DNA of 64,000 nucleotides from assembly GCA_000004985.1 (NCBI GenBank), contig GG738895.1; one strand, written 5' to 3'. Position 1 is the first letter of the stretch, and every line of letters starts with the position of its first letter. The notes below the pieces were generated by a model. It did not search any database, was not told where the DNA came from, and saw only the letters and a list, made by a program, of their open reading frames with translations. Of the stretch, positions 1,705 to 61,418 are shown piece after piece. Source of the DNA: Naegleria gruberi. Taxonomy: Eukaryota. Made by a program: the position numbers and the translations under genes.

Positions 1705-2047
1705 TTTTTGTGGTTATATTATTTTTATTGATATAAATATTACAATCAATTGGGAAATGGAATATTCGATCATGTTTGAATAAAGAGGTATTGTATTTTA
1801 CATTAACATCGTAATAACCAAAAATTACTTAACCTGCTTGAAAGGATATGGATCTTTATTGGCAGGTCATTAGAATTCCAACAAAGTCTCAAATTGTAAA
1901 GCTTGTGGAAGAGATGATTTAAAGTAATTGAAATTTGTTTTGATGAAGACGGAATAACGAAATTTTTGCTTTAATGAACAAGAAATCAACAAGAAACGAA
2001 AAAGTTTGTCCTCTAGGTTGGGAATTCGGAAGTTTCGAATTAAAATA

Positions 2048-4021
2048 ATGGAATTACCAACCGAAAAAATGTCTCAACCAGATCTATCAACATTACCACC
2101 AAGACCTCACCATATCAAGATTCTAGGACCACCCTGTGATTGCAAACCAGTGAAACTAACCGTACTAAAACAAGTGGAAGAAAGTACAACAAATTTTGGA
2201 GCTTTCTACTACAAGTGCGCAACATGTCGATACTTTAAATGGGCAACAGATTCTGGTAATTCCATTGATTATGGTGACTTGTGGGCTCCATGTTGTCTTC
2301 TTCATCCCAACCGAAAGTGTAAATTATTGCAAATTGCAAGAAACAGCATTAATAGAGGAAAATTATTTTGGATTTGTGGAGTTTTGGATACTCCTTGTAC
2401 CCATTTTCAATTATTCGAAGGAAATATTGATGATTACAAAGAGTTTGTACCGAATTTTGATGAATCGTTATTGGAAAGTCAAGAACTAGAGAGTTCTCAA
2501 TCAAGTCAAATTGTAATGTCTCAGGCAAATTCAAGAAACATGATCGTTAGTCAATTACCAGAGGAAATCATGGCAGAAATTTTGAAATACTTGGACATGA
2601 TTCCTAATTGGGTGAAAATTATTGGAGTCTGTAAAGAATGGAAGAGAATGATTGATAATGTGATCGACCAGAAAGTGAATGATGGCTTAATTGAGCTTAA
2701 TCTTGGTTTTTTACATTCAAAAAGTCCATTTTGGTATTTTTGTGAAATTTTCAAAAGATTTTACAAAGTAAGAAAGATTACAATTTGTAACTTTGAATTG
2801 TATAGCGAATTAATGAGATTATTGGAATGGGTTGGTGTCGAAACTCTGGTATTATATAATTGCACAACCAAAATGTCCTGTAATCAGAAAGATCAAGTTG
2901 ATGACTCAGATAAGGTCTTAAATGAATGTTTTTCATTTAGGTCTAAATGCACTGAAATGTCATTCTTTCACATTCATGGAGAAACTCTATTATACAATTT
3001 CAATCATAATCATGTGGTACCTCATTTGAATGCTATTAATTCGGACATTTACTTTGAGTTTGTTAAAGAAATGGAAAGAAAAGTTGACATTACCCATAGA
3101 AGGCAGTTTCAAGAGTTGTCTCAGATTATTGCAATTAATTGCCCAGAGGATCTGAATTTTGTTTGGCTTAATGGTCCAGATGCTAGATCCTACCACAAAC
3201 ATGAGCAAGTAGACGCAAACTATGGAGATTTACTCGATTTACCTTTCGAACAAGAAGAATTGGAAAATATTGGAAAGTGTCATGTTAATGTGTATTCTCT
3301 GCCTACAGATATTGACGTTGGTTTTCTAAACCTATCTCTATTGGGACATCATAGAACACCAAAGATTTATGTGAAAAATGGAAAAAAGTACAGCTTTCCT
3401 ACCGTTGTTGATAATCAAGTAATTTCACATCCAGAAATTCAAAAGCAATTCATTCTAAACTGTGGAATTTCCAAGTATTTCAATGTTAACATGCTTGAGA
3501 TTGTCAACAAGGAACATTTCGATATTGCAGTAGAGAGTGGAATTGTACATTTTGAAAATGTTCACAAGCATGCATCCTTCAAAATATGTTTGGAAATATT
3601 GGCAAAGAATTTACTTGAAGATATACTTAAGGTTAATGGGAATGAAAGACTATTTTCCTTATGGAAAGGAACGTGTGTTTATAGACTTGTGTACTGGATA
3701 TACACTTTGCATTCGAAAGGTTTAGTCAAACCAATTCCTTCTTCAATTATTCAAATAGCCAAATCTATTGATTCAGAATGGAAGCAACGAAAACTTCTCT
3801 ACTCTCCTGTTTCAAAATTTTACGTAGATTATTCGAGAAATATTGGTGCTATTAGAGTTCCATTCTCATGGGAAGCTTTTGTTAATTATGGCGAATTGAG
3901 ATATCTTTTTGATGAATCATCTGAAAATTCAAATACAGAAATGGTGGAAAAGAATGCAAATAGAAGAACTTCCAATCAATTCGATTCTCTTAACCAACCA
4001 AAGAAGAGGAAACTAGAATAA
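2048..4021 (+). CDS. Protein with two GRF-type zinc fingers followed by an F-box-like motif; C-terminal two thirds unassigned
   Basis: First ATG of the 671-aa ORF is at 2048. CDCKPV...NFGAFYYKCATCRYFKW and CCLLHPNRKCKL...RGKLFWICG...CTHFQLF fit the zf-GRF pattern. LPEEIMAEILKYLD...CKEWKRMI fits an F-box. Confidence 0.6.
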   Translation: MELPTEKMSQPDLSTLPPRPHHIKILGPPCDCKPVKLTVLKQVEESTTNFGAFYYKCATCRYFKWATDSGNSIDYGDLWAPCCLLHPNRKCKLLQIARNSINRGKLFWICGVLDTPCTHFQLFEGNIDDYKEFVPNFDESLLESQELESSQSSQIVMSQANSRNMIVSQLPEEIMAEILKYLDMIPNWVKIIGVCKEWKRMIDNVIDQKVNDGLIELNLGFLHSKSPFWYFCEIFKRFYKVRKITICNFELYSELMRLLEWVGVETLVLYNCTTKMSCNQKDQVDDSDKVLNECFSFRSKCTEMSFFHIHGETLLYNFNHNHVVPHLNAINSDIYFEFVKEMERKVDITHRRQFQELSQIIAINCPEDLNFVWLNGPDARSYHKHEQVDANYGDLLDLPFEQEELENIGKCHVNVYSLPTDIDVGFLNLSLLGHHRTPKIYVKNGKKYSFPTVVDNQVISHPEIQKQFILNCGISKYFNVNMLEIVNKEHFDIAVESGIVHFENVHKHASFKICLEILAKNLLEDILKVNGNERLFSLWKGTCVYRLVYWIYTLHSKGLVKPIPSSIIQIAKSIDSEWKQRKLLYSPVSKFYVDYSRNIGAIRVPFSWEAFVNYGELRYLFDESSENSNTEMVEKNANRRTSNQFDSLNQPKKRKLE

Positions 4022-31874: not shown

Positions 31875-32077
31875 TGACATTGAATTGAAATATTTGAGAT
31901 ATTAAGCCTATTAAAGTACAAATTTCTGTCAACACGCTTATTTTTTTGTTTATGAATAGATTTCTACTCATATGCTTATCTTTTGCACATATTAAGTTTT
32001 ACAGCTGTCCTGACCAATGGTTTAAAAAATCTCTTATTAACAAATCTTTCAGATTCCTATTGGTCATTGTAAAAAAA

Positions 32078-33580
32078 ATGTTTAAACAACTTGATCACGA
32101 TTCCTTGGTCAATATTATTGGATTTCTTAACCTTTCTGATGTATTGGAAAATTTTGCCATCATCAATTCCGAAATAAATCAACTTTTTAATGATCGGTAT
32201 GGATACTTGATCTCTTTGATCACAGATAGGATTTTATTCTCGGAAGAACATTTTCTAGCCTTGTTCAATTTTTTAGATAAGAATTTTCAAGTTGAATCAA
32301 TACTAAATGAAGAGGAGAGGGAAGTTATTAATTGTACAGCTTTGAGTAGAATATGTGGGGAGGAAAATCATGATGAGAGGAAGGTGATTGAAAGAGTCTT
32401 GTCAGAGCAGATTAATTGTGTCCAGATTGATAATTATTCCAAGATGAAAACATGTTGGAGTTGTTGTAAGAGGCTGAGCTATTTGAATATTCTGTTTATA
32501 CCTAGGGATAGCGATAGAAACATTGAAGTGTGTTATTGCCCTGGTCATGAAAAATACATTCATTACAGTTTGGATAATTACGGAAAGATTATGAAATTGG
32601 CTGACTCCTACGAATTTTCAAAGGATAGAATTTACAAATTTACTTTGCATTATAAGAATGGATTTAACGTAAAGAAAATATATTCGAAACCAAGAGAATC
32701 ACATAGAAATCAAAAAGAAATAATTCTTAAAAACAAGGAATTGTATATTGAGCTTACAGGCCCGACTCTTTACGAGTATAATACTGTAACATTAATTCAT
32801 CAAGAATCAATTAATAGTGACATTACCATTTCAATACCAAACATTCAAGATTCTGAACATTACAAGAACAGATGTTACTTGGTGAGGAGCGATTTATTTG
32901 TCAGACCACTATATGACATTAATTCTTTCTTCCATGATATTTCAGCTCCCAACAAATGTGGAGATTTGAAAGTATCAAGAAAAGGAGATTCTATTTTATG
33001 GACAATCTCAAAGAAAAATATCAAACAATTAGTATTTCGTTTCATGATTACAAATGCTATGATTCTACCACTTTCGTTGCTCCTATTTGTATATTTAACG
33101 GATTATTCTATTGATTCTATATCAACTGATAATATTCAACTCCTTATGCTTTTTCTTGATTCAGTTTCATTAAGTTGCATTTCCCTTTTTGCTTCGGATT
33201 ATTTCACTAACAGATATCGTCGTGTATCAACGGAAAGCTTTAAATTTCTGGCCAAAATTGGTATTGGAAGTTTTTTCCTAAAACTAGTCATTTCATTCAT
33301 TTTTCCATTCCTTTCTCCAGTAGATACAGCAAGTCCATTTAGATTATCATTGCAATTCACAATCCCTTACATATTTTCTTTATTTACAACCATAGTCTCT
33401 TGTTCCTGTTTAGCTCAAACATCATTTTGGTACGCACGTTCCTGTGATTGGTTTTACAATTTGAGGAAGAAGGAATCAGCACTTGGTAGAGTTTTCAATA
33501 AGTGTCTATCTTGGATAACAAACCTCTCCTCCTTGAAAGGTGTAGACAATGACACAGAAGAACGTTGTGTAGTTAACTGA
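32078..33580 (+). CDS. Hypothetical protein: F-box-like N-terminus plus C-terminal multi-pass membrane region
   Basis: A-tract+ATG at 32078. The N-terminus reads LDHDSLVNIIGFLNLSDVLENFAIINSEINQLF. The C-terminal ~190 aa have several hydrophobic helices. The architecture is the same as 5567..6871. Confidence 0.55.
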   Translation: MFKQLDHDSLVNIIGFLNLSDVLENFAIINSEINQLFNDRYGYLISLITDRILFSEEHFLALFNFLDKNFQVESILNEEEREVINCTALSRICGEENHDERKVIERVLSEQINCVQIDNYSKMKTCWSCCKRLSYLNILFIPRDSDRNIEVCYCPGHEKYIHYSLDNYGKIMKLADSYEFSKDRIYKFTLHYKNGFNVKKIYSKPRESHRNQKEIILKNKELYIELTGPTLYEYNTVTLIHQESINSDITISIPNIQDSEHYKNRCYLVRSDLFVRPLYDINSFFHDISAPNKCGDLKVSRKGDSILWTISKKNIKQLVFRFMITNAMILPLSLLLFVYLTDYSIDSISTDNIQLLMLFLDSVSLSCISLFASDYFTNRYRRVSTESFKFLAKIGIGSFFLKLVISFIFPFLSPVDTASPFRLSLQFTIPYIFSLFTTIVSCSCLAQTSFWYARSCDWFYNLRKKESALGRVFNKCLSWITNLSSLKGVDNDTEERCVVN

Positions 33581-33611: not shown

Positions 33612-34388
33612 ATGCAACAAGATCAAGAAGATGCCACAATAGTTTTCCTGCATGATTTCGCTTTCTATAACCAAAATTCTTCCTCGGAATACTTGGTCAA
33701 TCTCTTGAAGAAAAACCTGTCAAGGCCAAGGACAAGATTTAACATGAAAAAAGTTGACAGTTTCCAAGATTTGGAATTGAGAGAAGATTTACTACGAGGA
33801 GTGTATGGATATGGATTAAAACAATTATCAGAAATTCAAACTAAATGTATCATGCCAATAATATCATCCGAACCACCACTAGATGTTGTTTGCATTTCAA
33901 GCTCGGGGACTGGAAAGAAAACTGCATTCTCAATTGCTCTTCTCCAAAGAATAGACTTGGATCATCAAGCGTACTCTAAAGGAGCACCTCAAGCTCTAGT
34001 TATTACACCTACGAGAGAAATGAGTCAAGTCATTTCTAATCACATCAAGAAATTGGCTCATTATTTGGATGTCAAAGTATTACCTTTCCATGGAGGAGTT
34101 TCAACCAAAGAAACAATCCAAGCTCTAAATGAAATTCAACATGTAGTTGTTGGAACAAACAAATTGATGGACTTAATCAGGTTTAAAGTTTTGAATTTGA
34201 AATATTTGAAACTGATAATAATTGACAGAACAGGTTGTGATTGGCTCGACATGTATGATCAACAGATTTTGAGAATTATCAATGCATCAAACAAATTCAA
34301 CCTTCAAATATGTGTCTTTGGCGATTCGAGAAATATAGGATCGATTGAACAATATCTGAAAGATCCAATTTATTGTGAACTGGAGTAG
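33612..34388 (+). CDS. eIF4A-like DEAD-box helicase domain 1 only, with degenerate catalytic motifs (pseudo-helicase, copy 1)
   Basis: The protein is collinear with eIF4A RecA domain 1. The Q-motif region is FQDLELREDLLRGVYGYGL..LSEIQ. Walker A is SSSGTGKKT, and PTREMS replaces PTRELA. VVGT is present. DEAD is replaced by IIDR and SAT by VFG. It ends at the DPI...E domain boundary. Only ~295 nt remain before the next gene, so no domain 2 can be encoded. Confidence 0.7.
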   Translation: MQQDQEDATIVFLHDFAFYNQNSSSEYLVNLLKKNLSRPRTRFNMKKVDSFQDLELREDLLRGVYGYGLKQLSEIQTKCIMPIISSEPPLDVVCISSSGTGKKTAFSIALLQRIDLDHQAYSKGAPQALVITPTREMSQVISNHIKKLAHYLDVKVLPFHGGVSTKETIQALNEIQHVVVGTNKLMDLIRFKVLNLKYLKLIIIDRTGCDWLDMYDQQILRIINASNKFNLQICVFGDSRNIGSIEQYLKDPIYCELE

Positions 34389-34683: not shown

Positions 34684-35775
34684 ATGGGAAACAATCAACA
34701 ACCCACATCCCAACCACCAGTTTTAAAAGATGGCGCTCTTCCGAGTGTTAGTACTCCATCATCAGCATGTTATGAACGCACATTAATGCAAGAATATTTT
34801 CCTAATAATTGTAAATTAATTCGAGTTTGTGATCATGATGAAGAAAATCGAAGGAAACAAGAGGAGAATTTGAAGAATTATCGGGAGAAATACTTGTCTC
34901 GATGTAATGGAATATTGGAGAAGATGTTACCTGAGGAAATTATTGTTGAAATTTTGTATTACTTGCCAATGAAGAGTTTGATCAAATTACAAATGGTTTC
35001 AAAGAATTTTCGCTTGTATTGGACTGAACTTCCTGGATTGTGGGATAAATTTTCAGATTATCCCAAAATGATGTATATTCCAATGGTATACGAAAGTATG
35101 AGAAGTAATTTTGGATATTATAATGAATTTAGACAAAAATTAATTAATTTACATGAAAAGCCAACACGAAATTTTGATTTTACTGGATATCAATACAAAG
35201 CCATCGTTTTGGGAGATAAAAAGTGTGGGAAAACCATTTTGCATAACAGAGTCTTCAAAGGCGAACCATTTTCTCAAGAATATGTCTATACGATCGGAGT
35301 AGATTTTTCTACCACAATTTCCAAACAAAACATATACATTCAATCTTGGGATACAGGTGGAGATGAAAGATTTAGAACAATTAATATCAATTTCTTTAGG
35401 GGTATGAAAGGCCACTTTTACTGCTTTGATTTGAATAATCACGAGTCATTTGAAGTAATGAAGGACATTTTTCAAGATTGGAAGAATGTATATCTCAAAG
35501 GTGAAGACCTTAGTTCATATTTTACTAAGATTTCATTCGCATTGGTGGGATTGAAATCAGATTTGGAACGCAAAGTATCAAGAGATGAAATTCATGAATT
35601 CTTGGAAAATATTGAACCACTGAAGGATAAGACTTTGCACACCAGTAGAGTCCAATACTTTGAGTTGAGTTCTAAAGAAGATTCAATTTCAGATTTACTT
35701 TTTCCATTTGTCTATAGTTATCATAATGTAATGGAAATACCAAGGCAATATTCAACAAGTATAAGTGAAATGTAA
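34684..35775 (+). CDS. MG-start + F-box + Rab-like small GTPase fusion protein (copy 1)
   Basis: The N-terminus is MGNNQQ. The F-box reads LPEEIIVEILYYLPMKSLIKLQMVSKNFRLYW. The GTPase motifs are G1 GDKKCGKT, G2 YTIGVDF, G3 WDTGGDERF, G4 GLKSDL and G5 ELSSKE. There is no C-terminal Cys. Confidence 0.75.
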   Translation: MGNNQQPTSQPPVLKDGALPSVSTPSSACYERTLMQEYFPNNCKLIRVCDHDEENRRKQEENLKNYREKYLSRCNGILEKMLPEEIIVEILYYLPMKSLIKLQMVSKNFRLYWTELPGLWDKFSDYPKMMYIPMVYESMRSNFGYYNEFRQKLINLHEKPTRNFDFTGYQYKAIVLGDKKCGKTILHNRVFKGEPFSQEYVYTIGVDFSTTISKQNIYIQSWDTGGDERFRTININFFRGMKGHFYCFDLNNHESFEVMKDIFQDWKNVYLKGEDLSSYFTKISFALVGLKSDLERKVSRDEIHEFLENIEPLKDKTLHTSRVQYFELSSKEDSISDLLFPFVYSYHNVMEIPRQYSTSISEM

Positions 35776-35924: not shown

Positions 35925-38900
35925 TTAAATCATTAAGAACTGAACAAAGACCACTAAGCACAATACTTCAGTAACAAAATAGCTAGCATTAGCAACAGAA
36001 ACTCTATCCGATTTTCCAGGTGAACCCCTTCTTGATGGTTCTGGAATTGGTTGGGAAGTACTACTTTTTGGTTGTGGAATAGATGGTTGTGGATTAACAG
36101 GACTCTCTCCATTACAATTCATCTCATAAGCTCCAATATCTGGTGCCTTTCCATAATAAGGCATTCCAACATTAGTTCCCTTATCAATCAATGTAATGTT
36201 GCTGTCACATCTCAATCTAAAATCATTAGCCAAATAATCTTTGAAATAATTGGTGGCATTATTGTAATTATTTTCAAAAATGGTGTTTGGTCCAATAACT
36301 GGTTTCCAAATACCTTGGAAATAGCTCCCAACAATTGCAATATAATTGTAATCAGTTTCCCAATATGGAAGAAGATCAAACTTTGCACTAGAAGTTCCAA
36401 TATTCAAGTCAACCAACTGAATAGTATTGTCCAAGAAGGCATTATTCTTCATGGAAACACTTCTTGGATAGTAACTAATCATTGCCGAATCAAAAATTGC
36501 TTGGAATACCAATTCATCAAGAATGGATCTTGTCAACCCTCTTACTTCCTCAATAATTGAAAGACCAGCATTTGAATACGAGAAAGCACCTGTACTGGAG
36601 CTTAATAACCCTCTTTTTGTAACAGCAGTCCAATATGGATAAGCAAGACCATCTTGATCCAATTGAGGAAGAACATAATCTTTGTGAACTGACATGAAAT
36701 TAGTGTCATTAATCACATTGTTAATGAAATTGATAATTTCAGCCTTATCACCACTTGTTAAATCTGAAGCTGTAGAATAAGATCTAATTCTTGATACAAG
36801 AGTTTCATTTTTGGACCAAACTAATTTGTTTCCATTTTCGGTTGGGTTTACAATACTGTTAAAAAGAGTATTCCAATTTGAAGTGGTAGTACTATCTATC
36901 AAAGCACATCTGCTATTATCTGTCTTGACAGCAAATCTCAAAAATGATTGATAGAATTGATTATTATGCAGCACAACTCTAGCAGCATGATTGACACCAA
37001 CTGGACCTCCAATAAAGACATTTCGTCTGAAGATAACTAAACCATTTTGTTCCATCCACATGTTCTGATTACCAAGTTTGTTAATCAATACGTTATCTTC
37101 GAGAACAATGTTATTGATATTGGTAAATTGAATATTATCTGGATGTTGACGATATGAAGTTTGATGCTCAACTCGATTGTTTTTGATTAGAATATTCCAA
37201 TTACTATATGCCAATTGAGTTCCAGAACCAACCCAAATACCATTATTATAATTCTTGTAAATGTACATGTTCTTAATTTGTGAATCGTTCACCATACTTG
37301 CAAAGTTTACACCATTGTTGTGATTATAACTAATCTTGCCGCCATCAACATTAATATTAGTTGCATCTCTGAAACTAAATCCATTTTCACCATTTCCATA
37401 TGAAGAGCAGTTCAATAATTGAACACTATCAGTGAATTGACCAAAAAATCCCATTGAAGCATACTTTCTAAACATCATATCTTGAACAATTAAACCATCC
37501 CCGTAAACTATTGAAATGCCATTGGTCAAGGCAGATGCTTCAAGCATGACACCACTCACCTTAGGATCCTTATCAAGTGAAACTTGAATGATATTTCCTT
37601 CTGCGGTATATTGATTAGCACGAGAGAATGATCCAATATGATTGGCAATAGCATACGAATCTTTCAAGACTATTCCCATTGGAGTAGTAAGTCCTGGCGG
37701 AATGGCATTAATTCCAATAGTATTGGTAGTGGCATTGTAATAGATAATTGTTCGAGGTTGAATGGCATTTCCAAATTGATTGTAATGGTAGAAATCAGCA
37801 CCAACCCAGAAATTATCTGAAACAGGATTTCCTGCAGCATCATATTTGAACATGTCATCAACTTCCAAATAGACTATTCCATTTAAAGTGTATGAAACAT
37901 TCTTTGGAGTGAGATAATTAGTATGATCATATTCATCATCCAAATCATATGGAAGAGGTTTCATTGCCAAACTCAATTTCTCGCCATCTGCATAAATATA
38001 CGAAGTTGAAACTTGAAGTTGACCCTTATAGATGGAAATTGGTGTGGACATGACCTTTTCCAAATTTTTAGGATCAATAATTAATGAACCATCCAAAACT
38101 GCTGAATAAGTTTTGGAATTTCCAGAGGAAGGAGTTGGTGGATTCAAAGGTTTGATAGTAATTGGATGTTTGGAATGGGTTGGGCGATCAAAATAGATTG
38201 ATTCTCTATAGATACCATTTCCAACAATTAAGGTGTCATCTGGAAGTAACATGTATTGAGCTGCATTCAAAGTTGACCAAGCAGAAGATAGACCAAGACC
38301 ATCATTAGAATCGGATCCACTCAATTGATTAACATAGTAGGTCAATCCATTTCTGTTGTGCATTTGTTTACCTTGATAAACAGTAACAGATTGAGATCTC
38401 AAAGTTGCTCCTTTGGAATTTCCTGGATTTCTGTCATAAAAACCAAATTTCAAGATTTTAAACTTTTGAATAGCACTAGAATCGGTATCTGTTACAATGA
38501 CTTGATAATCATTAGCACTGGAACCCAATTTAGCCAACTGAATTGAAATTCCATTTGAAGACCATTCAGCATAAAGTTTGTAAGTGGAATAAAGCAATGG
38601 GACATGAATTAATGCTAATTTGGAGCTAGAATATAAGCGAACAGATTGACCATTCATAATTCTGGTAATGGACATGGTTGGATACAAACTAATCTTGTAA
38701 TAATTGTTTTGGTCAACCAGGAGAACAAAACCAAGATCATAGCTGGTAGATAGAAAACCAGTTTGCAAATTGCTTGAAAATGTAACACCATCAGTAGTGT
38801 CATACGGAGTGTCATAGGTGACAATCGAATCATTTTGATAAATTTGCAACAATTGACTAGCAATACCAACATTTCCTTTTTGGGTATTCCAACCAGCCAT

Positions 38901-39326
38901 GCCATTGCTAAAATTACTCTGCATCAACACCTTCAAACTATTTGGAGTAGGCAATGCAATAGATTGAATAGTAATCATGTGAGTAATGGTTATCTTTTTC
39001 CCATTCACATCATTATACGAAACGTTTCTCATCACCACAGTTTCGCCAATCGATTGTGTACTATAAACCAGAGCTGAATTATAATTATATAAACCAGTTT
39101 TCAATGGAGAACCATCTGCCATTGAATAAGCGATCTGAACTGAAGTTGAAGAATAGGAATCATTGAAATAGGTAATTCTTGGATTTAAAATTACTGAACC
39201 GAATTGATGCATGATAACTTTCTGGATGGGAGTAACGTAGAGTACATCCTGAACAGTTTGTGCATGTGTAACGGTATGAAAAACTGTCAGGAGGAGCAAA
39301 ATGACAAGTGGCAGTTTTGCTTTCAT
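35925..39326 (-). CDS. Large secreted right-handed beta-helix (pectin-lyase-fold, PbH1 repeat) protein with C-terminal Pro/Ser stalk and hydrophobic tail
   Basis: 1133-aa intronless ORF with signal-like MKAKLPLVILLLLTVFHTVTHA. It has a run of PbH1-like turns (NGISIVYGDG.., NGENGFSFRDATNINV, NHNNGVNFAS, NYNNGIWVGS, NIQFTNINNIVLEDN). The C-terminus reads PQPSIPQPKSSTSQPIPEP...LCLVVFVQFLMI. Confidence 0.7.
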   Translation of the reverse strand: MKAKLPLVILLLLTVFHTVTHAQTVQDVLYVTPIQKVIMHQFGSVILNPRITYFNDSYSSTSVQIAYSMADGSPLKTGLYNYNSALVYSTQSIGETVVMRNVSYNDVNGKKITITHMITIQSIALPTPNSLKVLMQSNFSNGMAGWNTQKGNVGIASQLLQIYQNDSIVTYDTPYDTTDGVTFSSNLQTGFLSTSYDLGFVLLVDQNNYYKISLYPTMSITRIMNGQSVRLYSSSKLALIHVPLLYSTYKLYAEWSSNGISIQLAKLGSSANDYQVIVTDTDSSAIQKFKILKFGFYDRNPGNSKGATLRSQSVTVYQGKQMHNRNGLTYYVNQLSGSDSNDGLGLSSAWSTLNAAQYMLLPDDTLIVGNGIYRESIYFDRPTHSKHPITIKPLNPPTPSSGNSKTYSAVLDGSLIIDPKNLEKVMSTPISIYKGQLQVSTSYIYADGEKLSLAMKPLPYDLDDEYDHTNYLTPKNVSYTLNGIVYLEVDDMFKYDAAGNPVSDNFWVGADFYHYNQFGNAIQPRTIIYYNATTNTIGINAIPPGLTTPMGIVLKDSYAIANHIGSFSRANQYTAEGNIIQVSLDKDPKVSGVMLEASALTNGISIVYGDGLIVQDMMFRKYASMGFFGQFTDSVQLLNCSSYGNGENGFSFRDATNINVDGGKISYNHNNGVNFASMVNDSQIKNMYIYKNYNNGIWVGSGTQLAYSNWNILIKNNRVEHQTSYRQHPDNIQFTNINNIVLEDNVLINKLGNQNMWMEQNGLVIFRRNVFIGGPVGVNHAARVVLHNNQFYQSFLRFAVKTDNSRCALIDSTTTSNWNTLFNSIVNPTENGNKLVWSKNETLVSRIRSYSTASDLTSGDKAEIINFINNVINDTNFMSVHKDYVLPQLDQDGLAYPYWTAVTKRGLLSSSTGAFSYSNAGLSIIEEVRGLTRSILDELVFQAIFDSAMISYYPRSVSMKNNAFLDNTIQLVDLNIGTSSAKFDLLPYWETDYNYIAIVGSYFQGIWKPVIGPNTIFENNYNNATNYFKDYLANDFRLRCDSNITLIDKGTNVGMPYYGKAPDIGAYEMNCNGESPVNPQPSIPQPKSSTSQPIPEPSRRGSPGKSDRVSVANASYFVTEVLCLVVFVQFLMI

Positions 39327-55099: not shown

Positions 55100-56207
55100 T
55101 CATTTTATTCTTGGTAATATTGTTAAAATTATATTTAAAAAGCCTTCAGTTTCAATATTGTTTGCATTGATATTGAGATCTGTTAACTGAGATAAGTGAC
55201 TCAATGATTTGGCACCTTCAGCACCAATATTATTTGTACTGATATTCAAAGTGGTCAATTTGCCTAGTTGACTGATATACATTGCTCCAGTGTTTCCAAT
55301 TTTAGAATAACTAATATTCAAGTCTGTTAATTGTGACATTTCGGATATAATTTTTGCCCCTTCATCTCCAATATAATTACAACTAATATTCAAATTATTT
55401 AAATTTTCCATTTGACTAATGAACTTGACTCCAACTACAGACAAATTTGGACAATTCGAAACATCAAGCTTTGTTAACTGTTTAATTTCACTAATTTTCT
55501 CTACAGATCTATCATTAAGATCAGAATATCTTACACGAAGTGATTTCAAAGTTTTTGATTGTGAAATAACATTCATCTGAAATGTTTCATCATTTTCTAA
55601 TGAAAATGCTGAATAACTCAAATCGAGTGAAATCAAATTTTTCATTCCAAATACAGAAAAAGATCCTGAATATCCAATACGATTGCTACATATATTCAAA
55701 CTAGTCAAGTTTGCCATTGTACTGATATGTTTAGCTCCTTCATCTCCAATTGAATTATAACTCAGATCAAGATTGGTCAATTGAGTCAAATTTTGAGAAA
55801 TTAATTGAGCTCCTTTCGTCCTAATTCTACAAACACTATTCCCAACAAGTTTCAATTCAACAATATTCCCAATAATTCCAGATTTAACAATATTTTCCAC
55901 AATTTTATCCTCAACCTCCAAATCAACAGAAAGTTTTGCCCTATTTTTGATTACTTCATGCCAATTACGAGAAATTAATAAACAACTTTGTATAATCATT
56001 GAAGAATCCAAAAAGGTAAGAATTTCATAACAAATATCATCAGGAAATACTTGATTTCGAAATTATTATATAAAAAATTACATAATTTTAGCAATTACAC
56101 TCACAATCAGGATTGGATTTCATTCCGATAGGTGCATCAATGGATTGTTTCATCTTTTTCCTATTAGAAAAATTATCATCATTTTCCCTTCTTTTTGTTT
56201 TTGACAT
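55100..56207 (-). CDS. F-box-like + 24-residue LRR protein; 2 exons (56105..56207, 55100..56049)
   Basis: Exon 1 has an A-tract+ATG and encodes the basic MSKTKRRENDDNFSNRKKMKQ...SNPD. A GTGAGT donor opens the 55-nt intron 56050..56104 (acceptor TCAAG). Exon 2 starts L-FPDDICYEILTFLDSSMIIQSCLLISRNWHEVI, followed by LRRs such as LTDLNISYSKIGNTGAMYISQLGK. Confidence 0.7.
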
Positions 56208-56411
56208 TTTTTTAAATTTCAAATTAATTTGAAAATTGGAAAATCAAAACATTGTAAACGATTTAATTGGCGGACCATCTCACTTAATAATCAACTCAAA
56301 ACATCCACCTCCCCGACTGCTAATAAGCAGGGATGTTTAAGCGGACTATTGGTCCACCATTCGAATAGACATCAACAAGAATCGAATTTATGTAAACTCA
56401 TCAAAAAAAAA

Positions 56412-57143
56412 ATGCACGACTGTTGTAAGCAAGGACACATTCACACAGGTACTCCAACAGGTACACTCACTCAAATTTCCGGAAGAGAAACCTATGTGAA
56501 AAAACATTCGAATAGTAATGGAAAGGCCATTTTATTTATTCATGATGCTTTCGGATTGCCATTCATTAATAATCAACTCTTGGTTGATACCTTCTCTGAA
56601 GAAGCACAAGCTGATGTTTATTTACCTGATTTTTTCAATGGTGATGGTGTTCCAATTCAAGTCCTGTCAAACATGTCAAGTTTTGATTTTAATCCTTGGA
56701 GAGCTAGAAATGGACGTGATAAATTCCCAATTATTGAAAGTTATACAAGAGCACTGAAAGAACAGGAAGGAATTAAAAAACTTGTAGTAATTGGATTTTG
56801 TTGGGGTGGTTGGGGTTCCATTCAATTAGGTCAATTGGATGATTTGGTGGATGGAGTTGTTTTGGCTCATCCATCAATGCTTGAAATTCCATCTGATATT
56901 GAGGCATTGAAAAAGCCAAGTTTATTCATTTGTGCTGAGGTTGACCATGCATTCTCAGAGGAAGCACGTTTATTATCTCAATCAATTTTGGAAAATAAGG
57001 AAATGGATGCAACATTTAAATTGTGGAATGGAGTGAGACATGGATTTGCAGTTCGTTTTGATACGGAGGATAAGATTGCTGCTCAAGCTGCTGAACAAGC
57101 AAAGGATGAGGCAGTTAAATTCTTTAAGAGAATACTTCAATAA
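56412..57143 (+). CDS. Dienelactone hydrolase family protein
   Basis: A-tract+ATG at 56412. The nucleophile motif VIGFCWGGWG (G-x-C-x-G) and the C-terminal HGFAVR His motif are present. Length is 243 aa. Confidence 0.85.
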   Translation: MHDCCKQGHIHTGTPTGTLTQISGRETYVKKHSNSNGKAILFIHDAFGLPFINNQLLVDTFSEEAQADVYLPDFFNGDGVPIQVLSNMSSFDFNPWRARNGRDKFPIIESYTRALKEQEGIKKLVVIGFCWGGWGSIQLGQLDDLVDGVVLAHPSMLEIPSDIEALKKPSLFICAEVDHAFSEEARLLSQSILENKEMDATFKLWNGVRHGFAVRFDTEDKIAAQAAEQAKDEAVKFFKRILQ

Positions 57144-57695: not shown

Positions 57696-59141
57696 ATGTT
57701 CTCGAGAACAAGGGTTATTTTCAAAATAATAATAATAATAATAATTAATGAATTGCTAATAGAGAATATTATATTTTCGGATGATGTTTGTTTTGAAATT
57801 ATTTCCATGATTGATGATTCGTGGTTTATTTTGAATAATTGTTCTTTAATTTCAAAACAATGGTTTAATGTGATCAAGGATCGTTCAAAACTTGTTATTC
57901 AATTTAAAAAAAAATTAACAGAAAAAAGAGTTGAATTATTAATGAAAAGTCAATTCATGAACAGTATTGTAAATGTTAAGTTTTCTTTTGGGTTGCTTAA
58001 CTCTTCAGATAAACTTAAATTCATAAGTGAAATGAAACATTTAACATCACTTGATATTGCTGACAATCAAATTGGTGATGAGGGATCTAAATTCATAAGT
58101 GGAATGAAACATTTAACATCACTTAATATAGATCGCAATCAAATTGGTGTAGAAGGAGCCAAACTCATAAGTGGAATGAAATCATTAATATCACTTAGTA
58201 TTGGTGATAATCAAATTGGTGTAGAAGGAGCCAAACTCATAAGTGGAATGAAACATTTAACATCACTTGATATAAATCGCAATCAAATTGGTGTAGAAGG
58301 AGCCAAATCAATAAGTAGAATGAAACAATTAACATCACTTAATATATATTACAATCAAATTGGTGCTGAGGGAGCCAAATCAATAAGTGGAATGAAACAA
58401 TTAACATCACTTGATATTGGTGGAAATCAAATTGGTGTAGAAGAATCCAAATACATAAGTGAAATGAAACAATTAACATCACTTGATATATATAACAATC
58501 AAATTGGTGTAGAAGGAGCCAAATCAATAAGTGGAATGAAACAATTAACATCACTTAATATTGGTTTCAATCGAATTGGTGTAGAAGGATCCAAACTCAT
58601 AAGTGAAATGAAACAATTAACATCACTTAATATTGGTTCCAATGAAATTGGTGTAGAAGGGTCCAAATTCATACCTGAAATGAAACATTTAACATCACTT
58701 AATATATATTACAATGAAATTGGTGATGAAGGATCCAAATACATAAGTGAAATGAAACAATTAACATCACTTGATATATATTACAATGAAATTGGTGTGG
58801 AAGGAGCCAAATACATAAGTGAAATGAAACAATTAACATCACTTGGTATTAGTGATAATCAAATTGGTGTAGAAGGAGCCAAATTCATAAGTGAAATGAA
58901 ATTATTAACATCACTTGATATTGCTGACAATCAAATTGGTGATGAGGGATCTAAATTCATAAGTGAAATGAAATCATTAACATCGCTTAATGTTAATTCC
59001 AATCAAATTGGTGATGAGGGAGCCAAACTTATAAGTGGAATGAAACAATTAACATCACTTAAAATATATTACAATCAAATTGGTGAAACTTTATTAATGT
59101 CTGTTATATCAATAACAGCTGAGACCAAATCTTTAGACTAA
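57696..59141 (+). CDS. F-box-like + 24-residue LRR protein (14 full units plus one partial); 5' end uncertain
   Basis: FSDDVCFEIISMIDDSWFILNNCSLISKQWFNVI is paralogous to the 55100 gene, and is followed by a regular LRR array. The ORF-internal ATG at 57696 would translate an (AAT)7 microsatellite as poly-Ile. An alternative is ATGATGGAG (57665) + GTAAAA donor + intron to 57764. Confidence 0.65.
   Translation: MFSRTRVIFKIIIIIIINELLIENIIFSDDVCFEIISMIDDSWFILNNCSLISKQWFNVIKDRSKLVIQFKKKLTEKRVELLMKSQFMNSIVNVKFSFGLLNSSDKLKFISEMKHLTSLDIADNQIGDEGSKFISGMKHLTSLNIDRNQIGVEGAKLISGMKSLISLSIGDNQIGVEGAKLISGMKHLTSLDINRNQIGVEGAKSISRMKQLTSLNIYYNQIGAEGAKSISGMKQLTSLDIGGNQIGVEESKYISEMKQLTSLDIYNNQIGVEGAKSISGMKQLTSLNIGFNRIGVEGSKLISEMKQLTSLNIGSNEIGVEGSKFIPEMKHLTSLNIYYNEIGDEGSKYISEMKQLTSLDIYYNEIGVEGAKYISEMKQLTSLGISDNQIGVEGAKFISEMKLLTSLDIADNQIGDEGSKFISEMKSLTSLNVNSNQIGDEGAKLISGMKQLTSLKIYYNQIGETLLMSVISITAETKSLD
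58010..59090 (+). repeat. 72-nt coding tandem repeat array (LRR units xLTSLxIxxNQIGxEGAKxISxMK)
   Basis: There are 14 full units plus 1 partial unit. Long stretches are shared verbatim between units, for example atgaaacaattaacatcacttgatat and caaattggtgtagaaggagccaaa. Confidence 0.9.
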
Positions 59142-60320: not shown

Positions 60321-61418
60321 TTATAGCATGGTTTTTAGAGTGGCAACAGCATAGAGGAATGGAAAGAGAAGGTCATCATCAGAGCACTCTTCTTTGGAGC
60401 TTAATTCAAAATATTGAACTTTGGTTGTGTGAATTGTTTTTTGTTGAGGCTCTGGCTCGACCATTTTTAGAAAATTGTAAATTTCAAGTCTTGTTACTTG
60501 ATGATCGAGATCTGATTTCAATCCGAGTAAGAGGAAACATCTATCATTGATATTGTAATCTGAAATATCTTTGACTGTCATTTCGTGATAAATTTCAATC
60601 ATTTCCTCAAATGATTTATGACTATTCAAATCAAAACAATACACAAAAACATTAGCTCTCGAATAAACAGATTTGAATAGCGATAGATATGTTTGATTTC
60701 CACATGTATCCCAAATCTTGAATGCAAATTCCGTCCCACTTCCATAAAGGTAATGCTTGTCAATTACTGGGAAAGTTATTGAGGGTGTATAATTTTCCGA
60801 AAATGGTAATTGATTAAAAGCTCTATCAATCAAAGTGGATTTACCACACCCTGATGACCCAACAAATATGTATTGGGCACATTGAGGCAATTCAACATCC
60901 TCATCTATTACAAATCTCTTCAGCAAGACATTTTTAACATTTTCATAACTTTCCATATCAGAAAACATGTACAACATTGGACTTTTTCTCCTCAAATCCT
61001 TCCACAGAACTTCAAATCTGGTCCAATACATTAAAAATCTCTTTGAAACTCGTTGCATTCTCCCTATACTTTCCATATCCAAAAATTGTAAAATGTGTAA
61101 AATTATTTCATGAGGAAAATTCGTCAACCAACCATCCTTCTCCTCACCCTGATTGAAATACTCATCATTGCCTCCATATCCTCTCCTAATTCCATTAAAA
61201 ATTCCTATCGGAAGCAATTCTACATCCGAAACAATAGTAGAAAGAATAGATTTCCTCTTGAATCCTCTTGGTAATTCCAACACGGGAAAATGTAGGGATT
61301 TTCCTGTAGAATAAAGTAAATTTTCAGATTGTTCACGGGAGGGGATTTTATTTTCATCTCTTGCTTGGTGATTCAGAGATGATGATGAGGGCGTCTCTGT
61401 TGATGTTTGTTGTCCCAT
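60321..61418 (-). CDS. MG-start + F-box + Rab-like small GTPase fusion protein (copy 2)
   Basis: MGQQTS fits the myristoylation consensus. The F-box reads FPHEIILHILQFLDMESIGRMQRVSKRFLMYW. The GTPase motifs are G1 GSSGCGKS, G3 WDTCGNQTY, G4 GLKSDL and G5 ELSSKE. There is no C-terminal Cys. Confidence 0.75.
   Translation of the reverse strand: MGQQTSTETPSSSSLNHQARDENKIPSREQSENLLYSTGKSLHFPVLELPRGFKRKSILSTIVSDVELLPIGIFNGIRRGYGGNDEYFNQGEEKDGWLTNFPHEIILHILQFLDMESIGRMQRVSKRFLMYWTRFEVLWKDLRRKSPMLYMFSDMESYENVKNVLLKRFVIDEDVELPQCAQYIFVGSSGCGKSTLIDRAFNQLPFSENYTPSITFPVIDKHYLYGSGTEFAFKIWDTCGNQTYLSLFKSVYSRANVFVYCFDLNSHKSFEEMIEIYHEMTVKDISDYNINDRCFLLLGLKSDLDHQVTRLEIYNFLKMVEPEPQQKTIHTTKVQYFELSSKEECSDDDLLFPFLYAVATLKTML

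Follow-up and report, generated by a model that had tools for sequence, protein, structure and literature searches.

In the Rab40-Cullin5 system the cullin-RING ligase has a Rab protein for its substrate receptor, with Rab40 carrying a SOCS box (ElonginB/C-Cul5) C-terminal to its G domain and keeping both prenylation and the canonical G motifs, and in RhoBTB a small GTPase is fused to an adaptor domain for a cullin, in this case Cullin3. The euglenozoan protein TbFRP (Tb927.7.3790) combines FYVE, F-box and Rab-like GTPase domains (PMC3593210), Legionella effectors combine a Rab domain with an F-box or U-box (Gomez-Valero et al., bioRxiv 10.1101/350777), and Supplementary Material 4 of Herman et al. 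2021 (BMC Biol 19:142, PMC8296547) describes Naegleria-specific F-box Rab-like subgroups as a lineage-specific expansion. Here we analyse two genes of this last kind, located in a stretch of 64,000 nucleotides from Naegleria gruberi contig GG738895.1 (assembly GCA_000004985.1; the whole stretch is hereafter called the window), which we refer to as copy 1 (34684..35775) and copy 2 (60321..61418). In both, a single polypeptide carries first an F-box and then a Rab-like G domain, and the reading towards which we lean, by analogy with Rab40-Cullin5 and RhoBTB-Cullin3, is that the products would act as membrane-tethered substrate receptors of a SKP1-Cullin-F-box (SCF) ubiquitin ligase, with a locked or fast-exchanging Rab-like G domain.

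The family described by Herman et al. 2021 is the same as that of copies 1 and 2, with no difference in kind. Both accessions occur once each in Table S8 of that study, a curated list of the Ras superfamily, as "Rab" with the additional domain "F-box" and with uncorrected gene models, while an accession search of the main texts gave no mention of either protein, so that Table S8 is the only place where they are listed. The same study reports a conserved N-terminal extension which can, for some members at least, be recognised as an F-box, subgroups under birth-and-death evolution of which one has a CaaX motif, and no close relatives outside Naegleria; its authors proposed GTPase-dependent ubiquitination for the F-box Rab-like proteins and suggested a role at the organism-environment interface (PMC8296547). 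Since both proteins are in Table S8 and the ubiquitination idea is in the supplement, the architecture was already known, and the view of an earlier, sequence-only reading of the window that this was an undescribed family does not hold. No comment on the missing catalytic Gln, or on the missing Asn of the NKxD motif, was seen in the supplement, and the supplements of that study do not contain the word "myristoyl" (PMC8296547). What is added here is incremental: a Met-Gly (MG) start as hallmark of the family, the universal loss of the Gln and of the NKxD Asn, members in Willaertia, and a negative test of kinship with FRP.

Both copies share the same order of a Met-Gly start, a leader of approximately 80–100 amino acids (aa), an F-box, a linker and a Rab-like G domain. 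In both, no other start codon stands between the preceding in-frame stops and the ATG, which lies in an A-rich context. All part coordinates were verified by translation (Table 1). Copy 1 matches a deposited N. gruberi "rab family small GTPase" with 100% identity along 100% of its length, and copy 2 is 100% identical over its full length to the deposited "small GTPase" XP_002672819.1; the two genes are located on one 333,733-bp N. gruberi scaffold, and the precomputed Pfam annotation of both already includes the F-box. Over the region that starts with the F-box and runs to the C-terminus they share 36% identity (E 1e-44), and a tblastn search of the window gave no third family copy within its 64 kb. 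Both domains score above the Pfam cut-offs in both copies: in copy 1 the F-box model PF00646 matches at aa 82-115 with 29.0 bits and the Ras model PF00071 at aa 172-332 with 83.2 bits, and in copy 2 PF00646 matches with 27.6 bits (cut-off for PF00646 20.5), the F-box-like model PF12937 at aa 98-143 with 29.0 bits, and PF00071 at aa 183-345 with 80.9 bits. The G domain of copy 1 also gave sequence matches in the PDB to Rab1 and Rab3 at approximately 1e-16. A first AlphaFold2 prediction from 3 sequences was discarded (predicted local distance difference test, pLDDT, of 35), and a run with a 20-sequence alignment was used, for the G domain only. In this model the block-mean pLDDT of the G domain is approximately 80–97, with the exception of an insert at aa 311-320 (approximately 60), and the top Foldseek matches of the G-domain model in the PDB were Rab9, Rab8, Rab1, Rab11 and Rab7, with a target-normalised template modelling score (TM-score) of approximately 0.8. 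In the same run the pLDDT of the leader was below 50 over most of aa 1-78, and this part is probably disordered, and the F-box was modelled with helices at 84-93 and 96-105 and with the third helix reduced to a 3-residue segment near 107-109.

Word-indexed homologue searches were too insensitive for this family, as they returned, besides the proteins themselves, only three plain Rabs and one homologue from N. lovaniensis, and recovery of the family therefore needed an exhaustive HMMER profile search, which covered 1.84 billion representative proteins and was followed by a family-specific F-box profile. This gave 25 members, from N. gruberi (many), N. lovaniensis, N. fowleri, Willaertia magna (three proteins) and metagenome contigs. 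The family thus reaches at least one genus beyond Naegleria, in contrast to the absence of relatives outside Naegleria reported by Herman et al. 2021. Both the Pfam F-box and the Pfam Ras domain were matched at E ≤ 0.001 in 20/20 aligned members, and the F-box which the sequence-only reading had called clear is borne out by the family F-box profile, which in the PDB retrieved only F-box chains (KDM2A/B, FBXW8, FBXL5, FBXO4, FBXW7, Cdc4 and Skp2, with E from 5.5e-5 upward). Copies 1 and 2 are paralogs, and the birth-and-death family to which they belong is specific to a heterolobosean lineage (Naegleria and Willaertia) and had already been catalogued.

The joint presence of F-box and GTPase could in principle be an annotation artefact, with two separate genes read through as one, or the genes could be decaying into pseudogenes. 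Some family members do carry disrupting mutations (PMC8296547), and in the curated paralog XP_002680417.1* the P-loop is degenerate and the G3 motif missing. However, both reading frames in the window are intact, without internal stops, and were left uncorrected by the manual curators, the same domain order, spacing and linker recur in over 20 homologues across N. gruberi, N. lovaniensis, N. fowleri and W. magna, and family-specific motifs are conserved (CFDL in beta-4, GLKxDL, RVQYFELSSK in beta-6/G5, and LLFPF), which makes this explanation hardly credible. The fusion of F-box and Rab-like G domain in one polypeptide, as proposed from the letters of the window, therefore stands.

Three members of the family are long forms of 765–954 aa (P0097, P0101 and P0104: XP_002676828.1 from N. 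gruberi, XP_044565615.1 of 954 aa from N. fowleri, and one metagenome protein), which also start with MGQ and in which approximately 400–570 extra residues precede the F-box, which lies at aa 386-616. In N. lovaniensis the two closest homologues, P0002 (C9374_009435) and P0007 (C9374_009431), are four locus tags apart on one contig, and this proximity, echoing the N. gruberi pair 25 kb apart, suggests a conserved local cluster; P0002 has a broken DxxG motif (WDM-GE). A scan of metagenome contigs with two conserved peptide patterns gave no further loci. A giant-virus origin, or the existence of viral copies, was considered and rejected, as a scan of viral contigs gave no relative and the fold matches in BFVD span the G domain only.

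The fold of the G domain is that of Ras/Rab proteins, but the complete small GTPase of the sequence-only reading is not a canonical one, as the G3 Gln is lost in both copies (Asp in copy 1, Asn in copy 2) and NKxD reads LKSD in both. The Rab-like switch I was attributed to both copies, and is present as YTIGVDF in copy 1 but not in copy 2 (PSITFPV). At the positions of the Rab family (RabF) motifs, copy 1 keeps IGVDF in switch I and an RFRTI-like switch II, and copy 2 has ITFPV and TYLSL. Motifs were counted in 24 family members and in 129 other GTPase hits. The P-loop is intact in copies 1 and 2 and in most members, and the switch-I Thr (21/24 in the family vs 123/129 in the others), the G4 Lys (22/24 vs 118/129) and the G4 Asp (19/24 vs 121/129) are mostly kept. 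The catalytic Gln in G3 is found in none of the family members (0/24, with D, E, S, N, H, V, K and others instead) vs 82/129 of the others, and the same is true for the NKxD Asn in G4 (0/24, replaced by L in 13, M in 5, T in 3 and F in 1, with a gap in 2, vs 81/129). This Asn is the site of the classic Asn-to-Ile mutants of Rab/Ypt proteins, which have a lowered nucleotide affinity. Because the P-loop, the switch-I Thr and the G4 Lys and Asp are kept, guanine nucleotide is probably still bound, and because the catalytic Gln and the NKxD Asn are lost, normal Rab-like cycling is unlikely. Together this pattern of residues suggests a G domain which probably still binds guanine nucleotide, but without the canonical hydrolysis cycle driven by GTPase-activating proteins (GAPs) and guanine nucleotide exchange factors (GEFs), and makes a classical GTP-hydrolysis switch doubtful. 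Outside these motifs, FP..Y in alpha-5 and two family-specific insertions (aa 272-283 and 311-322 of copy 1) are conserved.

The mean frequency of the top residue in switch II is 0.44 in the family vs 0.74 in the comparator GTPases, which suggests that the classical effector surface has either diversified or been relaxed. A variable partner surface with dispensable catalytic residues would also fit with these proteins being Rab decoys coupled to a ligase, in which a GTPase-dead mimic captures bacterial Rab-targeting effectors, or Rab regulators, for ubiquitination. This would be in line with the birth-and-death expansion and with the interface role suggested by Herman et al. (PMC8296547), and also with Naegleria being a host of Legionella, the effectors of which include fusions of Rab-like domains with F-box or U-box. 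If true, it would represent an amoebal integrated-decoy defence, comparable to the integrated decoys of plant immune receptors. The argument is wholly circumstantial, however, and the variability could equally reflect relaxed constraint, so that we give the decoys at best a slim chance.

The start of the proteins is more uniform than most of their leader. An MG start, followed by Q or N, is present in 21/25 family members, and for one of the four non-MG members a cluster mate starts with MGQ. Only 4/129 of the other top-scoring GTPases have an MG start (Fisher p = 3.5e-18, with members which are not phylogenetically independent). In the family alignment Gly2 is conserved at ≥90%, whereas the leader is otherwise not conserved, and this selective retention of Gly2 in a variable leader is the strongest argument in favour of N-myristoylation. 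The PROSITE pattern PS00008 (G-{EDRKHPFYW}-x(2)-[STAGCN]-{P}, a crude pattern) is matched by 14/21 of the MG-starting members, copy 2 included. At the other end of the protein, a Cys within the last 5 residues is found in 2/25 members vs 68/129 of the other GTPases. Neither copy has a Cys near its C-terminus (..STSISEM and ..TLKTML), so both are without a prenylation motif, as was claimed from the sequence before, and judged by its C-termini the family is a non-prenylated subgroup. N-terminal lipidation of the family is plausible, and so, with MG kept in 21/25 members, is the N-terminal membrane attachment that had been considered the only option for the two copies. The manually corrected model of XP_002677491.1* in Table S8 (PMC8296547) begins upstream (MFSKIWKASLTCHDLNIKITKK), 22 aa ahead of a conserved MGNKQP; with MG at the start of 21/25 members, the true start is probably the internal Met, and the curated extension would probably remove a putative myristoylation site.

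The hallmarks of the family (a conserved Gly2, absence of the prenyl Cys and of the catalytic Gln, and Leu/Met for the NKxD Asn) lead to the hypotheses of a myristoyl anchor and of a locked or pseudo-GTPase. In the mechanism which we propose, Gly2 is probably myristoylated and would provide a membrane tether, perhaps a weak one, standing in for the missing C-terminal prenyl anchor. The F-box would recruit Skp1, and hence a Cul1-based SCF ubiquitin ligase, and the Rab-like G domain may be the target-recognition or regulatory module, since it is located where F-box proteins carry their substrate-binding domain. This G domain is more likely to be locked or fast-exchanging than to be switched by GAP and GEF proteins. 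Nucleotide-state control through a normal GTPase cycle, as envisaged in the sequence-only reading, is weakened, with the Gln and the NKxD Asn kept in no member and a relaxed switch II. Beyond the identity of the domains we infer each of these elements, i.e. myristoylation, binding to Skp1 and SCF, the substrate-receptor role and the nucleotide behaviour.

Several observations weigh against this membrane-tethered substrate receptor. The myristoylation consensus fits copy 2 (GQQTST) as claimed earlier, but PS00008 is failed by copy 1 (GNNQQP), and by 7/21 of the MG-starting members, and neither leader contains a second membrane signal in its sequence, i.e. there is no nearby polybasic stretch and no Cys. 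The confidence of the F-box in the AlphaFold2 model of copy 1 is moderate (pLDDT 64–70 for aa 81-110), and the natural Leu/Met at the NKxD position could make the domain a nucleotide-free pseudo-GTPase, for which nucleotide state would be irrelevant. Finally, the authors of the TbFRP study favour an F-box-driven self-turnover for their protein (PMC3593210).

An F-box does not have to act through SCF, as in yeast Rcy1, the model for a Skp1-dependent, non-SCF role in trafficking. In an analogous role, the F-box of the Naegleria proteins would bind Skp1 without Cul1 and act in membrane recycling, with the Rab-like domain giving contacts to membrane or effectors. The Rab-type fold, the probable membrane tethering and the genuine F-box are all compatible with such a trafficking factor, whereas a lineage-specific, fast-expanding and variable family is unlike a core trafficking component, and we consider this role decidedly unlikely.

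The substrate-receptor reading has also to be compared with self-turnover, in which the Rab-like GTPase would itself be the output, and the F-box would couple the protein to its own SCF-dependent ubiquitination and to rapid degradation or processing. F-box proteins are commonly auto-ubiquitinated. Self-turnover is the reading proposed for TbFRP, which is rapidly cleaved and the level of which depends on cell density (PMC3593210). The loss of the Gln in every member and the poor conservation of switch II sit badly with the idea that the main output is a signalling GTPase, and no specific kinship of the family to FRP was found (see below), which leaves self-turnover rather unlikely for the Naegleria family.

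The family resembles FRP in several respects. In both cases a discoban protist has an F-box N-terminal to a divergent Rab-like G domain, the catalytic Gln is absent (FDISGH, YDLSGA and FDASGD in FRP), a Cys is present in beta-4, the Euglena FRP has GLKGD at G4, and membrane targeting is N-terminal, putatively so in the Naegleria family, and not by C-terminal prenylation. Trypanosomatid FRPs have lost NKxD altogether (VCGLIPP), the Euglena FRP keeps GLKGD, and the catalytic Gln is found in none of them (PMC3593210 mmc1); no comment on these motif losses was seen in the text of PMC3593210. The PI3P (phosphatidylinositol 3-phosphate)-binding FYVE domain is a feature of FRP only, and copies 1 and 2 gave no Pfam match to FYVE at E ≤ 1. 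The authors of the FRP study found no N. gruberi ortholog (PMC3593210). We compared the families with profiles of six FRP sequences, which were rebuilt out of text obtained by optical character recognition (OCR) of the supplementary alignment. With the FRP G-domain profile, N. gruberi Rab11, Rab18 and Rab22 scored approximately 46 bits and the 129 other GTPases had a median of 32.7 bits, vs a median of 17.8 bits for the family, while the FRP F-box profile matched the family weakly (at most 19 bits). Common ancestry with FRP is thus unsupported, as canonical Rabs outscore the family, although this is a weak negative given the OCR errors and the extreme divergence. The losses common to FRP and the Naegleria family may be convergent. 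Alternatively, both might go back to one ancestral discoban fusion of F-box and GTPase in which the anchors were swapped (FYVE vs myristate), a descent which the G-domain test did not support, although both lineages have diverged strongly.

Of the systems compared, Rab40 is the best functional analogue of the substrate receptor proposed here, as a Rab G domain is fused to a cullin-adaptor box; this is an analogy and not homology, with the adaptor box C-terminal in Rab40 and the F-box N-terminal in the Naegleria family, and there was no SOCS box among the Pfam matches of copies 1 and 2. RhoBTB, which is also present in Naegleria (PMC8296547), resembles the family in the fusion of a small GTPase to a cullin adaptor, and differs in its Rho G domain, in having BTB instead of an F-box and in its domain order. 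The Legionella proteins combine Rab and F-box in one polypeptide as well, but are secreted bacterial effectors, and are likened here by description only. If our reading is true, a Cul1-based SCF would join the Rab40 cullin-RING ligase with Cul5 (Rab40-CRL5) and RhoBTB with Cul3 as cullin ligases with a small-GTPase adaptor, and protists would have invented the GTPase-ligase arrangement independently and expanded it greatly.

Table 1. Positions in the window of the two F-box-Rab-like genes and of their parts.
Feature	Position	Strand	Basis or remark
Copy 1, whole gene, F-box-Rab-like protein, 363 aa	34684..35775	+	uninterrupted open reading frame; XP_002672750.1 / EFC40006.1
Copy 1, N-terminal leader, aa 1-81, starts MGNNQQ	34684..34926	+	candidate N-myristoylation site, then low-confidence stretch
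Copy 1, F-box, aa 82-120, LPEEIIVEILYYLPMKSLIKLQMVSKNFRLYWTELPGLW	34927..35043	+	Pfam match; translation checked
Copy 1, linker, aa 121-168	35044..35187	+	predicted helix aa 139-156
Copy 1, Rab-like G domain, aa 169-350	35188..35733	+	Pfam, PDB sequence matches, model
Copy 1, P-loop (G1), GDKKCGKT, intact	35212..35235	+
Copy 1, switch I, YTIGVDF, Rab-type, Thr kept	35287..35307	+
Copy 1, G3, DTGGD, catalytic Gln to Asp	35350..35364	+
Copy 1, G4, LKSD, Asn of NKxD to Leu	35551..35562	+
Copy 1, C-terminal tail EIPRQYSTSISEM and stop, ends ..STSISEM	35734..35775	+	no Cys
Copy 2, whole gene, F-box-Rab-like protein, 365 aa	60321..61418	-	uninterrupted open reading frame; XP_002672819.1 / EFC40075.1
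Copy 2, N-terminal leader, aa 1-97, starts MGQQTST	61128..61418	-	fits PS00008 pattern
Copy 2, F-box, aa 98-143	60990..61127	-	Pfam
Copy 2, linker, aa 144-180	60879..60989	-
Copy 2, Rab-like G domain, aa 181-357	60348..60878	-	Pfam Ras; motifs
Copy 2, P-loop, GSSGCGKS	60837..60860	-
Copy 2, switch I, PSITFPV, degenerate	60765..60785	-
Copy 2, G3, DTCGN, Gln to Asn	60696..60710	-
Copy 2, G4, LKSD	60510..60521	-
Copy 2, C-terminal tail VATLKTML and stop	60321..60347	-	no Cys

The genomic context of copies 1 and 2 shows no functionally linked neighbours. Directly upstream of copy 1, the gene at 33612..34388 (+) encodes a protein of 258 aa with an N-terminal DEAD/DEAH helicase domain only (72 bits) and no Helicase_C, and it is preceded by a 544-aa reading frame without Pfam match (31946..33580); the former could be a truncated helicase, or else a gene model split by an intron. 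On the opposite strand and shortly downstream of copy 1, 35925..39326 (-) encodes 1133 aa, in which a signal-peptide-like hydrophobic N-terminus and a weak match to a right-handed beta-helix are accompanied by a stalk rich in Pro and Ser and by a C-terminal tail that is hydrophobic; from these sequence features it looks like a surface or secreted protein. One more F-box protein, which has no relation to the GTPase family, is encoded in the window at 2006..4021 (+), with PF00646 matched at aa 182-219 (24.9 bits), an N-terminal GRF-type zinc ribbon just under its cut-off (24.6 vs 25.9 bits) and a weak tblastn match of its F-box to copy 1. Just upstream of copy 2, the two genes at 55100..56011 (-) and 57696..59141 (+) encode proteins with leucine-rich repeats (matches to LRR_6 and LRR_8 of up to 234 bits), and the interval between them contains a gene for a dienelactone hydrolase (56229..57143) as well as a tRNA-Lys. 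The latter is one of six tRNAs which are dispersed between the protein-coding genes, at 11303 (Ala-TGC), 31801 (Thr-AGT), 39819 (Leu-CAA), 45360 (Gly-GCC), 52314 (Asn-GTT) and 57323 (Lys-CTT).

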